DNA of 64,000 bases, from the NCBI GenBank assembly GCA_030390025.1, contig CM059434.1, positions 18,166,001-18,230,000 on the forward strand, read 5' to 3'. The translations under genes and the position numbers were made by a program. This document shows, in pieces, positions 3,323 to 55,722 of this stretch. The stretch's first letter is position 1. Every line of letters starts with the position of its first letter. The notes under the pieces were generated by a model. That model had not been told where the DNA came from. It did not search any database and saw nothing but the letters and a program-made list of their open reading frames with translations. Source of the stretch: Squalus acanthias (lineage: Eukaryota).

Positions 3323-3732
3323 GTAATGCTCACAGTCTGAAGCAGACGATTAATTCGGTCAAAGGAGGCCCTGTCTTCAAGGATCATCTGGGTTTTTAAT
3401 TAACCCCTTTGCAAAACTGGCACCTAACTTTTTAAATTATACTGTTTCGTGCTAAGCTTCTAAAATCTCAAAATCTACTACTAATATTTTGGTATGATGC
3501 GTTGTGTTTTGTTTGGGCATTGCTGTTCCTAATTGGTATGTTAGTTTTTAAACAAACACGAAGATTAAGTTCCACAATAGTCAAGTGAAAGGACTGCAGA
3601 AAGATTTCTGTGAGAACTACCCTCGCGAGTTGAGTTTTGAGTAGAACTCAAAGAAATATTTGATGGTACTGCACATATTTTAAGTAAACTTCCATTAAAT
3701 GTAGAATAGGTTGAGAGTATTGTACAAGAGCT

Positions 3733-4110
3733 TGCCTCATGGCTCAGTGGGGTAAAAATACCGGAAAGGTTCCCGGTTCAGCTCCCATCTTCACTGGATT
3801 TGCCAAGCAAGGCAGCAAATAGGGATGCTATTGTTTGCTTCAGCGTTCCTGGGTTAGGGATAAGGCAAAATCAACCAGAGTTTCTGCTCCTGATCACTTT
3901 CTCAGTGACTCTCACTGGAAAGTTGACATCAGGTGAGAACAGGATTGGGATTGGCTGTGAAGTTGCCCACACAATCAAACAGGCTGCCAACCGCTCACTA
4001 GGCTCATACTTGAAGACAGGCCACTGAAGCAAATACCCGCGGGCTACCGAACCCGTGGAGACTTACCCCATTACGAGTTAGTGCATTCAGGAGAGAAGAG
4101 AAAATGGAAG
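3733..4110 (+). mobile_element. tRNA-headed SINE, second (non-Deu) family
   Basis: A-box tggctcagtgg and B-box-like ggttcagctccc; body shared with degraded copies near 8860, 18480, 28975, 36420 and 56495. Confidence 0.6.
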
Positions 4111-6991
4111 GCGGGTGGGTGGGGGACGGGGAAAGGAGAGAGGGGATGGTGCTGATACTAATTGTCCTTGTTTTAAATTATATTTTTAAATAATCAATAT
4201 TATTGCTGCCAACAACAAATTGTGTCTGTATTTGCACATTTGTGCCTTGAAATACTCACCAAATATTAATTGTCCCCATACCTTTTTAAAGCAGACATTT
4301 TAATTAAAAGAAATCTAAATATAAAATTAAATTGGCATGTTCCACACAAGCCTTCCCATTAATCGTGAGGTTAATCTCAGGTGATCCTTGATACATGGTC
4401 CAATGGCATTCAAGGCTTTGGTCAATATCATGTCACAGTGGTATGCTAGTGAGAAAAGACATATATATAAAGTTACTGGTGTTAATTGCCACGGAAATGT
4501 TCTGTTTCACAGGCAAAATGACCTCTTTTATTTAAAAACTATTTCAAAAAAATGCAAATCTTTCTGGAAATGTTTGTGAATTATTCTGCTAACAAGTTGA
4601 AGGTCAGGTTCTTTGTATACTTTAAAAGTTCATGGCATAGAGAGAAAAAGTTTACAATTTTTGAACTGGACAGAAAATAGATGAATGGTAGTTAAGGTTA
4701 TCCTTAAGACAAAAGAACTTGATTTTTCTTTTACGTTTATTTGGATCCCCTGCACCATTTTTTCCAATTAGTTCCTCTCCCCTCCTGCCACCCCACCCAA
4801 CACCACCCCCAAGACCTATACTTATTTTTTTGCCAGAATAGGGACCTGCTCTCAGTCTATGCTATTGCTTCTTGATTTATTGGTTGCTAGGAAATGTACA
4901 AGAGCAACCTGGTATAATTTTTCTCCCAACTCCTCCCTCTCCCCTTTCGCTTCTGATCCGTCAATCTCCCTGAGGGACAAGGTGAGGTCTGGAACTTAGC
5001 ATGCGATGCAATGTAGGCACAAACCTGCACCCAACACCTCTGATGCTGAACATTTCTAAGTTCGATTTGACATTCTTGATTTTACTGGCCAACTTGAGTC
5101 ACTGTGGTTGGCTAATGCTCCAAAAGAAAAATGGTAATCATGCAGTGTATTCAGCTAACAACAGCTTAAAATTCCTGCTTAATTTTTTTTGTATTAATAA
5201 TTGCCCCCCCCACACACCCTACTTATCCATAAGGATGTTATTTTCCATTGTTTTTAAAGCTCTGAAGACGTCTTTTAGTAAAGATCCATTACCTTTTGTC
5301 TGAGGAGAAAGATGAACTAGCTGCGGGCTACTTTAATTCAAATTATACCACGAGCAAATGATGGGGTTATATTGCCACGCAATTTTTGCAGGCACTGCAT
5401 TGTTGTGCTATTGGACAAACAAAAATATGTTTGATAGATACCTTTCAATTGTGGCGGTACCCCTTTCAGTTGCAGTGTTTTATAACAATCTTGTGTCCCC
5501 TGCCTTGTATTGACATTTGAACATTCATGAAGAAAAGAAGTAAAAACATTAATAAACAGGCGCTATCTTAACTAGTTAAATGTAATTGACTCAAATATTC
5601 ATATTTAACTGGAAACGGAGCATCTCATTATTATCACTGTTTGAGACATGTAATCTTAGAAGATTAACTGAGAAGCAGGATTCTTGGCACTTATGTTTTT
5701 TGAAATAATGGTCTGAATTATCTATATAAACACAATCACACTAGCATTCCATTGTGTAGGTTGTTTTCCCATTGGCATGCCAACATTTATCTGCATCATA
5801 AGCGAATGTGTTGCCCAATTCTAAAACTGTGTGTGGTGCTGGAAAATGCCTTTCTTCTGGCTGTGGCCTTTTTTCATGCTGCTTTTGTTAATGGTGGCTT
5901 ACTTGAGTAAGCATTCAGTCAATTGATCTTGAAGCATTTTAAGGTCCAAATGATTCAGGCATAAAATCAATAAGAGTATTTGTTTAGAGTTTTGGATAAA
6001 TCGATACTCTGAATCTACGTACTGTACATTGATTAAAAAAAAAAAAATGATGCTGGGGTACGTGGATCTTCAAAAATAAGAGCACGGTTTCCACAGTCAA
6101 TCAGATGGGATTCCTTTGGTTGCCAGAGTTCTCTTAAGTTCCGAGTCTGATCTTTTGCACCTTTAATGTGCAATGGAGTTCATCACAGCTATTGAAAAGA
6201 AAAATCAAACCTACAAGACCTAACTGTGAACCCTAACTGATGAACTCGGTCATTTAAAAACACCTTATTTGGATCTATGTTACTTCTGAGTCTAAACTAT
6301 ACATTTCAAATATTACGTTAAAAATATTTCCTTAATTACAGAGGTGACCTGTAGTAAAGTTTATATTGAACAGCATCTCTATTATTACCTTCAAAATGTC
6401 AATTGGATTAAATAAACGTTCAGTGAGTGGTGCTCATATTTTTACTGCTACTTGACTAAGCGTTAATACCTACTGCAGAACACCACAAGTGCAAGTACAA
6501 TGCAAATCCAGTGACTCGTAACAGCCAACAAACCTGCTGATGTTGAATATAATATTTGTTCTTTACACTTCCTGTTAGTAACAACTGAAGATAATTTTAT
6601 ATGCTTCATTGCTAACCAAGAAAATCTTTGGAAAATATTTTTTCCAATAAGTAATCTGTAGATGATTTCTCTCAGGCTATGGATTTTTAATTTGTGACCA
6701 TTGACCAGTTCAGAATATGATCTTTATGTTTGGTATACTACAGATTTGCCAGTTATGTGGCACAGTTTGGTATATATGTTTTTTTTTTAAAGTCATTAAC
6801 CTCATATCCTAAAGAAACTGCCATTTTGCTTTTTCATATCACATAACAAATCTTATTGCTGAGGAAATCAGTGTTGGGTGTATGTTAACATTCAACGGTT
6901 TATATGCCCGCTACACACACTTTACTTTAATCTTGCTACCTCTTAACTTCCTACTAGTACTTTTCTCAGTTTTCTTCTCACTTTCCTGCAG

Positions 6992-7036
6992 TGATCCGCA
7001 GCTTGATAGGAATACCTTGCCTAAGAAGGGATTCAG
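6992..7036 (+). CDS. NAV2: NAV2 coding exon (45 nt, phase 2-2): DPQLDRNTLPKKGFR
   Basis: Long pyrimidine tract and ctgcag acceptor, donor AG|gtattg; carries the navigator-family motif DRNTLPKKG. Confidence 0.94.
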
Positions 7037-22934: not shown

Positions 22935-22987
22935 TTCATGGGTCATCTCTATCTCTGGTCTCCAGCACATCTTCCATTTACTCAACA
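22935..22987 (+). CDS. NAV2: NAV2 coding exon (53 nt, phase 1-0): VHGSSLSLVSSTSSIYST
   Basis: gtacag acceptor, donor |gtaagt; highly conserved navigator peptide. Confidence 0.95.
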
Positions 22988-29250: not shown

Positions 29251-29451
29251 ACAAGAGCAAAAGAAACTAGAGAAGCTATATGGTCATTGTTGAATCAAAA
29301 TGATGAAAGCAATTCATTATTGAATAATCCACGCAGGTAGCAAAGTCACTTTTCCCCCATATAAGTATCATGTAATAATGTTTCACTTAATTTTTGCTTT
29401 ACAATCTTTTTATACCTTCTCTTTTAAAATAATATTTTTTTCTTGTTTTAG

Positions 29452-29475
29452 CCGGAGGAAAAATCGCAGTCAGAG
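29452..29475 (+). CDS. NAV2: NAV2 24-nt microexon (phase 0-0): PEEKSQSE
   Basis: Long T tract and ttag acceptor, donor GAG|gtaagt; matches NAV2 PEEKCQSE. Confidence 0.92.
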
Positions 29476-30882: not shown

Positions 30883-30957
30883 ATCCGCAAACTTCGTCGA
30901 GAGCTCGATGTTTCCCAGGAGAAAGTGGCAGCGCTCACGACACAGCTGACTGCTAAT
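30883..30957 (+). CDS. NAV2: NAV2 coding exon (75 nt, phase 0-0), coiled coil: IRKLRRELDVSQEKVAALTTQLTAN
   Basis: cgcag acceptor, donor |gtaagt; navigator coiled-coil peptide. Confidence 0.95.
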
Positions 30958-38693: not shown

Positions 38694-39899
38694 AGGCAGT
38701 TATTTTATTTCCACCAATTGAACATTGCAGCAGCAGTGAGCGTGGCAAACTGCTGAAGGCAGTCTTACAAATTAATTAAAATCCAATCCACAAGATATCC
38801 CATTTATTTGACCGAGCCTTCTCCAAAGAGATGTCAGCAAGGTTAATTGAATGTCTTGACTGTCCCAAAGTAATGTTCTGTATTGCGAGAAAAAGTGACA
38901 ACTGAGAAATGTCCTGCTCGTATTATTAAATCTATTTTAACTGGACGTTTTGCCACTGTTGTACTCCTGCAAGTCAAAGGACAACTGCATCAGTCAGAGG
39001 TTAAGAAGAGGAGTAATTTGTGAATGATTTAGTATATCTGAACAGCAGCTGTACAAACACAGTATTTCAGGCTTAGGTGTCGGGCTTCCTGAGCACTGCT
39101 ATTGGCATTCTCCGCCTCAGCTTAGGGAATGGGCTGATGCCACCTGTGCTTGTGCTAAATGAAGCCAAGCATGTTGCTTCACATTTAAAACTGCCAATTA
39201 CAGAAATGTCGCGTTATGTTACAATTTAATTGGCATTGTTCTGCTTTAAAAGTTCTAAAATATTCTCCAAACTATTTTGGCTTGCTATTTGGGGAAACCA
39301 CATCGAAGTTGGAGACGGTTAAAAGAATTAGCAAATTGTTTTGACTGATGGACATGAGGCTATTTGTGATCACATTCATGTAGGTTTTATGGATTCAACA
39401 TAATTTTCCTCGCATAATTGCACGTGAGCATTTCTTGCTGGCGGAATTAATTTAATAGTTCCCCGACATTGCCAAACAATTTTTCCGTTTTTCTTTCTCA
39501 AAAGACAAACGTACGGTTTTACTTCGGTTACTACAAACAAAATCGGATAACATAAGAAATCAGATTAGTTTGGCTTCATATGTGGTTGAAATGGTGAACT
39601 AGTTAATTTATGGAGTAGGGAAAAGGTGCCTCATGTGCAGATATGAGGCACTGTTTGTATTTCTTGCAGTCCCCTGTAAGACCAGATCTCTTCTTTAGCA
39701 TAAATGTCAGTGTTATTGTGTAAACAGGCAGATTGTTTTGCGAGAGTGCTTACTTTATTTTTCCTGTTCGTGCGACTTGTTAATAAGGTCATTATGTTTG
39801 TGTGTTTAACTGGGAAAACTGTCTTAAAGCTCTCATGCTAAATTGTCAGCACAGTGATTGATTTGGTATAATTGCCGAGGTTAATTTATTACTTTGCCA

Positions 39900-40140
39900 G
39901 CATCTGTGAGCCTGTTTATGTCATCAGAGAGACTAGAGAGTGCTTCCTATCACCCGCATGTAGAAGCTGTTTATATATATTTGATCCTCTGGGTTCTGCC
40001 TGAGGGAGCCTGACACTGCCTGGAGCCCTGCCTGTTCAAATTAGAACTTTTTTTGCAGGGGGTGGGGGGGCCTGCTTGTGTGTGTTATAGAGAAGCAACA
40101 GAATAAAGAGCTTGTGACACTTTTACACTCTCCTGATTCT
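39900..40140 (+). promoter_or_regulatory. Possible internal promoter upstream of the candidate exon
   Basis: tttatatatat near 39970, GGGGGTGGGGGG (Sp/KLF-type box) near 40058, ttatagag near 40085, in sequence with no recognisable repeat. Confidence 0.3.
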
Positions 40141-40447
40141 GCTGCAGCAGAGGTGAGCCTAGCAGGACAGCAGAACCCTTCTTGTTAAACTTGGAAGAGA
40201 GCTATTGATTTAATTTTGCAGTAACAGTGAGAAATCATTCCTTTGGCAGTCACGATAAGCATTTGAGACTGGAGAGTTACCTGGGTCAGAAACTCGTCTG
40301 ATTTGAGAAATGGCGATTTGAACTTGCTAGAGATGAAGCCTTTTGAGGTTACCAAAGCGGCTTTTTTCTCCCCCTCTGTGTTTTGGATAGTTAGTCTTCA
40401 GTGCCATTTGTTATTTCTTTGGCACTGAGCTACAAGGTGGAACTGAA

Positions 40448-40651
40448 ATGTCTGTTGTGAGCTCTCCTAACAAGCTAGCCAGTACCCTGCCCTGGCCCAG
40501 CCTCAACCATTACCCCTCTGTGCAAAGGAGGGGCACTAAGAATGGACAGTCAGAGCTGAGCAGCAGTGTCCATTGTTGTGATCAGTGCAACGGAAATTCC
40601 AGTTTTTCCAAAGAGCCTCCATCACCATATCCATTTGCAAATATGAATGAG
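40448..40651 (+). CDS. Candidate alternative NAV2 exon (internal first exon, 68 codons; or a cassette from 40391)
   Basis: No recognisable repeat; ATG with purine at -3; open for 68 codons to GAG|gtggga, phase 0, compatible with the exon at 55029; no transcript evidence available. Confidence 0.5.
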
Positions 40652-41960
40652 GTGGGATTATTTATTTAACGTGAATTGATTTGTCGTTAACAGTATAAAT
40701 GTCAAATCGACTTTTTTTCCAAAATGAAATGTTACTTATTTGTTTTGGACAAATGCTTGCAGGAGGAGTTATAAGATCATGTAGATTGGCCATTTGTGAA
40801 ACAACTGGCCTTTGTTTGCTCACTGAAAGACAACAGTGCAAACTTGTTTGAATGCTTTGTCATCAGGATTTTGTCTTTTATATTTGTCTGTGCTGCTGCT
40901 GTTTGGAAGGTTCCCCAATCTTTCTCGGAATAATCTTTGAGAGATTTTGAGTCGTAACGGTGCCTGTAGTTACTTTAATGAACATTGCAATAATGGCAAA
41001 AAAAAAACCAAAACTGCAAAAAAGGTGCAGAATTTAGGTAATATATGGCCAGAATTGTTGTGATAAAGGATCAACACTGCTGAACAGCGGTATACTGCCG
41101 ACTGAACAAGAAATTACATTGGACCGTATAACTCCAGAGTCTGTTGTTGTGACTTGGTTTATTTTGTGATAAATCACTGCTAAAATGTTTTTATTTAACT
41201 TGTGGAGGATGTGACTTTTCATTGAAACATAATGCACAGTGTTGAGGATAAAGTTCTGTGCCACTTAGCCAAAATGTGTTGCAGCAAAGGCTGACAGAAG
41301 GATGGATTAATAGAGGACGCATTAATAGAGGACGCATGTTGACATGAGTTTCGTGACAGCAGTGGGACTTGTTTCAAGGAGGAGAGTGCGTCATGTGTAT
41401 GATTGAGGTTACGGCCTGCCAGAGGGGCATAGGACCAGTAGGGAAAAGCTGGTAGGGGAGAAGTGGCATTATATTCGAAGCACTGTTGAGCCATGAATGG
41501 AGATCCATCAGTGAGATTATTGTAAAAACGCAAGAGCAGACAAGCTCCCAGTGCTTTGGCAGTGTATTCTATAACTGACGACTTGCAACATTTCCTCCTT
41601 GTGGGGAATCATCTGGACTCTGCTGTGTACCTTTCCCAACCATGTGGCTGAAGTTCAACCATACAGATCTGAAGGCCCCAGGTTCACTTTCCAATCTGTG
41701 CCAAGTTAACTGGTTTCAACTGAGCAGCGCAGGTTAGGGCTTAAAAAAAAGGACAACTTAAGATTGATATCGGGAAGATCGTAAACAGAATAGCTTTCTA
41801 TATAGAATGATGGAAGGGACAACTTTGGAGCCGGTTAAGAAAAAAATGAAATGTTATGGTGGGGTGGGGGGAGGTGTTGGATTTTTTTGGAAGGATGAAC
41901 CAAGATGGGGGTGAATGGATTTCTGCGTCTATTTATCTTGTGAATACAATGAGAACAATA

Positions 41961-55028: not shown

Positions 55029-55112
55029 GCTCACCTGGTAGCGGCCTTTGAACAAAGCCTAGCAAACATGACGGGAAGATTGCAGAGCTTAACTATGACA
55101 GCAGAACAGAAG
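55029..55112 (+). CDS. NAV2: NAV2 coding exon (84 nt, phase 0-0), coiled coil: AHLVAAFEQSLANMTGRLQSLTMTAEQK
   Basis: cacacag acceptor, donor AAG|gtgagt; follows a 24-kb intron in frame. Confidence 0.95.
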
Positions 55113-55610: not shown

Positions 55611-55722
55611 GATTCTGAACTTAATGAATTGAGAAAGACCATTGAACTGCTCAAGAAGCAGAATGCTGCTGCCCAGGCAGCGATAAATGGAGTCATCAAC
55701 ACACCTGAGCTCTCCTGCAAAG
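55611..55722 (+). CDS. NAV2: NAV2 coding exon (112 nt, phase 0-1): DSELNELRKTIELLKKQNAAAQAAINGVINTPELSCK
   Basis: ttcag acceptor, donor G|gtagga; nearly identical to recalled NAV2 and clearly different from NAV1/NAV3. Confidence 0.96.

Follow-up and report, generated by a model that had tools for sequence, protein, structure and literature searches.

The NAV2 gene of the shark Squalus acanthias is interrupted by an intron of some 24 kb within the 64,000-nucleotide stretch of contig CM059434.1 that we analysed (positions 18,166,001 to 18,230,000; hereafter the window). The question raised by this locus is whether the intron hides a coding exon of a short navigator protein. An initial annotation had proposed here an internal first exon or, alternatively, an in-frame cassette. 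We find that 40448-40651 is very likely an ancient coding exon. It is probably an alternative first coding exon of NAV2, which would be spliced in phase to the shared exon at 55029 and give a predicted protein of 836 residues. The features concerned are the following.

30883..30957, + strand: shared NAV2 exon before the intron (IRKLRREL...TQLTAN), which holds the first part of coiled coil 1 and is lacking in the predicted isoform
40448..40651, + strand: coding part of the candidate first coding exon, with ATG, 68 codons and a phase-0 donor
40475..40516, + strand: conserved core, codons 10-23 (LASTLPWPSLNHYP; pattern LAxTLxWPxLNHYP), 11 of 14 residues as in the NAV3 copy
40652..40667, + strand: donor GTGGGA (after GAG at 40651), then a T-rich run
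55029..55112, + strand: shared NAV2 exon (AHLVAAF...), the candidate's predicted splice target, phase 0, 768 codons to the stop

Part of NAV2 spans the window on the + strand, and most segments of its exons are 84-98% identical to named shark NAV2 in tblastn. The intron between the exons at 30883-30957 and 55029-55112 is 24,071 nucleotides long and its exons join in phase 0. It is 28% repeat-masked (30958-55028, against the fetched DNA) and contains several reading-frame fragments that we take to be related to long interspersed nuclear elements. The candidate stretch was said to hold no recognisable repeat, and this proved right: it is 0% masked, and the sole genome match of 38800-41300, in a search that skips very common words, is itself. 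The ATG at 40448 with G at -3, the in-frame upstream TAG at 40388-40390 and the pyrimidine tract are all present as described, and the 68 codons do run to a phase-0 donor, GAG/GTGGGA, that fits the acceptor at 55029. Two features expected of an alternative first coding exon are present, its own ATG opening a unique coding stretch and a donor in phase with the next shared exon.

The evidence that carries this reading is a homologue in another navigator gene. We scanned metagenome contigs with the acceptor exon and obtained 18 loci. Two of them, L033 and L038, are vertebrate and have several kb of upstream intron; a third vertebrate locus, L025, has only 0.8 kb of it, and the remaining loci are of invertebrate type. 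Both long-intron loci match the candidate peptide upstream of the AHLVAAF exon. In L038 the match (4243-4434, peptide P0391) has an ATG at 4243, 64 codons and a phase-0 donor, CAG/GTGGGA, followed by a T-rich run as in the shark. From there it is 3.9 kb to the downstream AHLVAAF exon, and no known exon intervenes; the contig lacks the preceding exon, and the intron was identified by the absence of known exons from the 8.3 kb upstream. The local score of shark against L038 is 90, which none of 5000 shuffles reached (maximum 61), and when all six frames of the 8.3 kb were searched, none of 200 shuffles reached the score. In the reverse direction, P0391 found the candidate reading frame as its best match in the whole 3.7-Gb shark genome (E 0.005; next match 0.37).

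The similarity is of a protein-coding kind. Over codons 1-35, shark and L038 share 15 identical residues, and 11 of the 13 degenerate ones are encoded by different (synonymous) codons. Identity by codon position is 23/19/9 of 35, with third positions at chance level, and 12/11/3 of 14 in the core; blastn does not detect the similarity. The pattern is one of selection on the protein sequence. The assignment of L038 to NAV3 comes from 196 residues, of which 170 are as in shark NAV3 and 156 as in shark NAV2, one exon being nearer NAV2 (26 vs 24 of 28). In a tree of 11 rows, L038 separated from all NAV2 rows with support 97/97 and fell together with shark NAV3 and with the shark NAV1 row, which is partial and has a long branch. 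Since ATG, core and donor are conserved in this NAV3 homologue, the internal first coding exon of the initial annotation is supported. We infer from a shared record prefix and a shared repeat that the host of L038 is the same bird as that of L033.

By itself, the sequence pattern is only modestly unusual. Our splice matrices were trained on 27 automatically found navigator introns of the shark genome, two of them probably misplaced, and their scores are rough. The candidate donor scored 4.8, as did or exceeded 98 of 1453 intronic GT sites. The candidate is one of four ATG..GT phase-0 frames of 30 or more codons with an equal or better donor in the intron, and the sole one outside repeats. What takes it beyond chance is the homologue in L038. 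A three-periodic coding model trained on 30 navigator exons gave the open reading frame a score of 0.041 in frame, against -0.13 and -0.15 in the other frames. At order 2 this was matched by 21 of 365 background stretches (3 of 121 when matched for GC content) and at order 3 by 22 of 365. The score was -0.19 to -0.29 upstream and +0.13 in the first 60 nucleotides past the ATG, with a step at the ATG from -0.21 to +0.13.

DNA contigs of close relatives were available for two organisms from one study, which carry nearly the same changes and were counted as one comparison (about 3.7% diverged). There are 4 substitutions in 40391-40651 (9.0 expected, P 0.04) and no indel. Those in the reading frame are S12T, S59L and one synonymous change, and both ATG and donor are intact. 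This is mild constraint without a codon pattern, in too few changes to tell protein selection. The in-frame TAG at 40388, which stands in the shark as the initial annotation had it, reads CAG in both relatives and is not a shared feature. Conservation of the reading frame and the donor, which had been suggested as a check, was seen in the close relatives and in L038 NAV3; in bird NAV2 (L033) the frame is broken.

The bird copy is nevertheless recognisable. L033 groups with falcon NAV2 (support 98/95), and the core was found in its 4.7-kb intron with a score of 55, reached by none of 200 intron-wide shuffles. Its ATG at 3703 is at the ancestral spacing; the frame breaks at codons 12-13, a second in-frame ATG stands at 3737 and a weak phase-0 donor (3.0) follows after 35 codons. 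Near 3889 stands a repeat that resembles one in L038 at 78%. We read the bird version of the exon as decaying; less probably, it is a live exon of reduced length or reflects an error of the contig. L033:3740-3784 and window positions 40487-40531 have 80% DNA identity over 45 nucleotides, with 1 of 9 synonymous sites and 5 of 15 residues changed, and in NAV2 the core may coincide with an element that acts as DNA or RNA. Searches with a profile gave no copy of the exon in the shark introns of NAV3 (7.1 kb) and NAV1 (3.8 kb), neither of which contains any N. An ATG..GT frame in the shark NAV3 intron turned out to be G-rich DNA unrelated to the candidate. At this place shark NAV2 has 24 kb of intron, compared with 7.1 kb for NAV3 and 3.8 kb for NAV1 of the shark and 4.7 kb for NAV2 of the bird. 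Loci L026, L027, L028, L030 and L032 are compact navigator genes of invertebrate type. Few introns, or none, interrupt their coiled-coil and AAA region, and several of the genes have a CH domain within 4 kb.

The exon is likely older than the NAV2/NAV3 split. It would have been present before the two genes duplicated, kept in shark NAV2 and in L038 NAV3, and lost from shark NAV3, and it would now be decaying in bird NAV2.

Several points weigh against the exon being used in shark NAV2. All 102 shark and ray NAV2 records that contain the acceptor exon (103 examined) show the plain join without insert, and a further 54 of the 150 members of the shark and ray clusters lie outside the records listed. 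None of the 315 records with the acceptor exon overall carries the candidate: 312 have the plain join, two are genomic frames that enter from the intron, and one is incomplete. A protein search with the candidate peptide (P0001) gave 0 of 65 candidates at E<=10 among proteins of 154-2000 residues, and 0 of 165 pattern matches in metagenome contigs were related to it. The donor is weak, with only 6 of 27 training donors scoring lower. The coding score is less distinct at order 1, where 61 of 365 background stretches are as high (15 of 121 when GC-matched). Two of the three changes in the close relative, S12T and S59L, are non-synonymous, and with three changes at random the frame would stay intact in 83% of cases. 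The intact homologue is a single contig from a single host, and the frame-broken bird NAV2 copy with its adjacent repeat means that NAV2 can do without the exon. Promoter, splicing and protein are predicted from sequence and conservation, and the role suggested below for the core is a proposal.

Some of these points favour the alternative that 40448-40651 once coded and is now a relic in shark NAV2, like the copy in bird NAV2. It is favoured by the lack of the exon in 102 of 102 records, the weak donor, the two of three recent changes that are non-synonymous, and the broken copy in L033 together with the missing ones in shark NAV3 and NAV1. However, the ATG spacing, the 14-residue core, the exon length and the donor have stayed intact, though third positions are at chance (9 of 35), and the divergence from the close relative is below that of the flanks, with 2 non-synonymous changes against 6.1 expected (P 0.06). 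We consider a relic unlikely.

The cassette of the initial annotation would be a 261-nucleotide in-frame insert (40391-40651) in full-length NAV2. Two features upstream of the ATG bear on it.

40361..40390, + strand: pyrimidine tract and YAG, a weak possible acceptor, TAG in shark and CAG in relatives
40391..40447, + strand: likely 5' leader, frame open, not codon-like, without homology to the NAV3 copy

The frame of 40391-40651 is open from AG to GT over 87 codons, the final 68 of which encode the candidate peptide. It is the only phase-0 AG-to-GT open cassette of 87 or more codons in the intron, and the change of TAG to CAG in the relatives still leaves a YAG. However, the acceptor ending at 40390 scores -1.5, which is under all 27 training acceptors, and the 57 nucleotides between acceptor and ATG have a coding score of -0.15 and no homologous counterpart. 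Homology between shark and L038 begins at the ATG and not at the acceptor. A stop 29 codons upstream of the ATG closes the L038 frame, whose two in-frame AGs score -6.8 and -2.6. A single-sequence model of P0012 predicts one helix over residues 165-219, with a pLDDT (predicted local distance difference test) of 95-97 near the junction 197/198, and a cassette would place 87 residues with 8 prolines inside this continuous helix. With homology and codon-like score starting at the ATG, a very weak acceptor and no insert in any of the 102 shark and ray records, a first coding exon is far likelier; the cassette is disfavoured, and we regard it as quite improbable.

A free-standing microprotein, or a junction to another exon such as the one at 55611, is very improbable. 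The candidate frame does run 5 codons beyond the donor, which unspliced would give 73 residues with a stop at 40667, and the exon at 55611 is also in phase 0. Against this, L038 shares the position, phase and hexamer of the donor but not the stop, its frame continuing for 22 codons past the donor, and in all three loci the copy lies upstream of the same exon. The exact 73-residue frame is absent from the protein collection.

That 40448-40651 is non-coding, either a conserved element or neutral DNA in which a reading frame arose by chance, is hardly credible. Frames of 68 or more codons with a purine at -3 do occur, at a rate of 0.15 in a simulated intron and 0.8 in 24 kb of antisense DNA with its repeats; shark and bird NAV2 resemble each other in the manner of DNA (changes in 1 of 9 degenerate shared codons and in 5 of 15 residues), and a nearby non-coding block is equally conserved. 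But the similarity to L038 is at the protein level with third positions saturated and invisible to blastn, the match is a reciprocal best one genome-wide, and the synonymous codon pattern against L038 largely refutes this alternative.

As a first coding exon, 40448-40651 would be driven by an internal promoter near 39.8-40.1 kb. Two features lie in this part of the intron.

39776..40056, + strand: low-divergence non-coding block with a TATA-like run at 39972-39979, 2 substitutions in 281 nucleotides
40150..40158, + strand: strong donor-like site GAG/GTGAGC after 40152, score 8.2, with 14 of 1453 intron GT sites as high

The low divergence of the block (against 3.5% overall; scan P = 0.08) is only a hint of a candidate promoter or enhancer. 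The donor-like site at 40152 is a possible end of a non-coding first exon, and a splice from 40152 to 40391 would take out the upstream ATGs at 40310 and 40333. No counterpart of this donor scoring above 4.5 was found upstream of the candidate copy in L038. The leader hairpin is ordinary (z -1.33), Rfam gave no match in 39000-41500, and the TGATTGAT site occurs 4 times in the window against 4.4 expected. Contigs of run X1, which is RNA by guess, cover 39200-39309, 39632-39877 and 39917-40078 at low depth, 99% or more like the window and without joints; for these, pre-mRNA, DNA and promoter-proximal RNA are indistinguishable. The contigs of X1, X5, X6 and X7 (likewise RNA by guess) give zero cover of 40391-40651, which weighs neither way.

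Elsewhere in the window, a micro-exon of about 25 nucleotides (PEEKSQSE) lies at 29451-29475, between the exons at 22935 and 30883, and is too short for tblastn. The DRNTLPKKG exon at 6992-7035 is alternative, being present in 59 of 101 shark and ray records; its human counterpart is the minigene exon described in the available part of PMC9065059. A weak likeness of the candidate peptide to the DRNTLPKKG region of NAV2 itself was reached by 2 of 300 shuffles for a bird record, by 13% for a ray and by 49% for a shark, without DNA likeness, and we took it as chance.

The predicted product of the first coding exon, 68 + 768 = 836 residues, would have no CH domain and would keep the AAA+ module. 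In P0122, 1552 of 2320 residues lie upstream of the acceptor exon, among them residues 3-104 with the CH domain. Ubiquitin-like domain, AAA domain and lid are all downstream of residue 1553, and the frame is open for 768 codons in the shark genome. A short NAV2 without the CH domain and the N-terminal two-thirds, as first suggested, is thus supported by conservation. With a C-terminal AAA+ domain accompanied by a ubiquitin-like domain and a lid, the product would belong to the neuron navigator family. It would lack 5 of 8 SxIP-pattern matches. The available part of PMC9877351 locates the microtubule-binding segment and the majority of SxIP motifs in navigators' N-terminal half, and the product would be without the long disordered region that holds the mapped cytoskeleton-binding segment and most SxIP motifs. 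The coiled coils were expected to be kept. This stood for coiled coil 2, which would remain, as would the ubiquitin-like domain and the AAA+ domain with its lid. Coiled coil 1 would lose its first part, as the junction lies inside its helix and removes 33 of 55 residues.

The unique peptide had been credited with a CCxxC-like motif. This motif is not conserved, the shark peptide having three cysteines and P0391 one, and the peptide does not carry a metal-binding motif of conserved cysteines; the conserved element is LAxTLxWPxLNHYP. The STLP of the shark peptide fits the SxIP pattern, as do 11% of shuffles, and the NAV3 copy reads NTLV. Its nearest basic residue lies outside what we take to be the nine-residue SxIP window. 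A conserved SxIP motif for EB binding, in which [ST]x[IL]P has a basic neighbour but not an acidic one (the context rule in the available part of PMC9877351), is thus not present. There is no Pfam family for the candidate peptide, and neither the shark peptide nor P0391 had a usable match in the Atlas. A complex prediction of the 68-residue peptide with residues 107-800 of P0358, which used no alignments, scored 0.00. Our best guess, and most likely the role of the 14-residue core, is a short binding motif that would give the AAA+ module its own partner or location and so replace the lost N-terminal anchors.

The exon would work like those of known internal-start navigator isoforms and is identical to none that we examined. 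In C. elegans, unc-53 gives short C-terminal isoforms without the CH domain from internal promoters. The NAV3 transcript ENST00000552895.5, presumably about 1250 residues long with a start further upstream, is probably not the candidate's counterpart. An own promoter is described for it in the available part of PMC12275056. In the parts available to us, PMC2843687 describes a shorter mouse Nav2 protein from an alternative start upstream of exon 13, PMC9985553 also contains internal-start navigator isoforms, and PMC7430845 gives a SOX10-dependent start site of rat Nav3 to which no position on the exon map was assignable.

The known short NAV2 isoform (about 1470-1540 residues; P0118, P0091), kept from sharks to mammals, resembles the candidate in its own short first exon, the lack of a CH domain and the shared C-terminal exons. 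However, its start lies far upstream of the window, ahead of the WDDSSSVSS exon and about 700 residues upstream of the acceptor exon, and both of its coiled coils are whole, whereas the candidate starts inside coiled coil 1 and has 836 residues. Human NAV2 isoform 6 (Q8IVL1-6, P0358) is alike in size, with 874 residues, and has coiled coils, ubiquitin-like domain, AAA+ and lid and no CH domain. Unlike the candidate, it begins at an internal methionine within a shared exon, 106 residues upstream, lacks an N-terminal peptide of its own and has coiled coil 1 complete.

We found no isoform starting in this NAV2 intron in the open literature, a scope that includes one supplement and excludes the original cloning papers; the available parts of PMC7005187 and PMC9065059 do not mention the exon. 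Among representatives, the three matches of P0001 were all multi-stretch repeat proteins, which we discarded. The P0001 protein searches are too insensitive at about 39% identity to exclude an annotated NAV3 isoform, and a predicted one with the P0391 start may already be in a database.

Existing alleles would affect the predicted isoform differently. According to the available part of PMC2843687, a gene trap between exons 7 and 8 of mouse Nav2 leaves the shorter transcripts intact; therefore, 5' alleles would spare the candidate isoform, which 3' truncations would eliminate. By count, the frameshift p.L1728Wfs2 of a patient (PMC9985553, available part) falls in the acceptor exon at 55029-55112 if it is numbered on the 2488-residue isoform. 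It would also remove an isoform joined at that exon, if human NAV2 has one.

Tentatively, jawed vertebrates may have inherited from the pre-duplication gene a third navigator size class of about 830 residues, undescribed in mammals, with the AAA+ module headed by LAxTLxWPxLNHYP as a new conserved binding motif and kept in NAV2 (sharks) or NAV3 (amniotes). It might tune or compete with full-length navigators away from actin and microtubule plus ends. The apparent exon swap between paralogues, shark versus bird, offers a case in which reciprocal loss following genome duplication can be tested. According to the available part of PMC9877351, the function of the AAA+ domain, by which the navigator family is defined, is uncharacterised. 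If our reading is true, a natural isoform that is little more than the AAA+ module and a motif older than the gene split would be a direct handle on AAA+ function.
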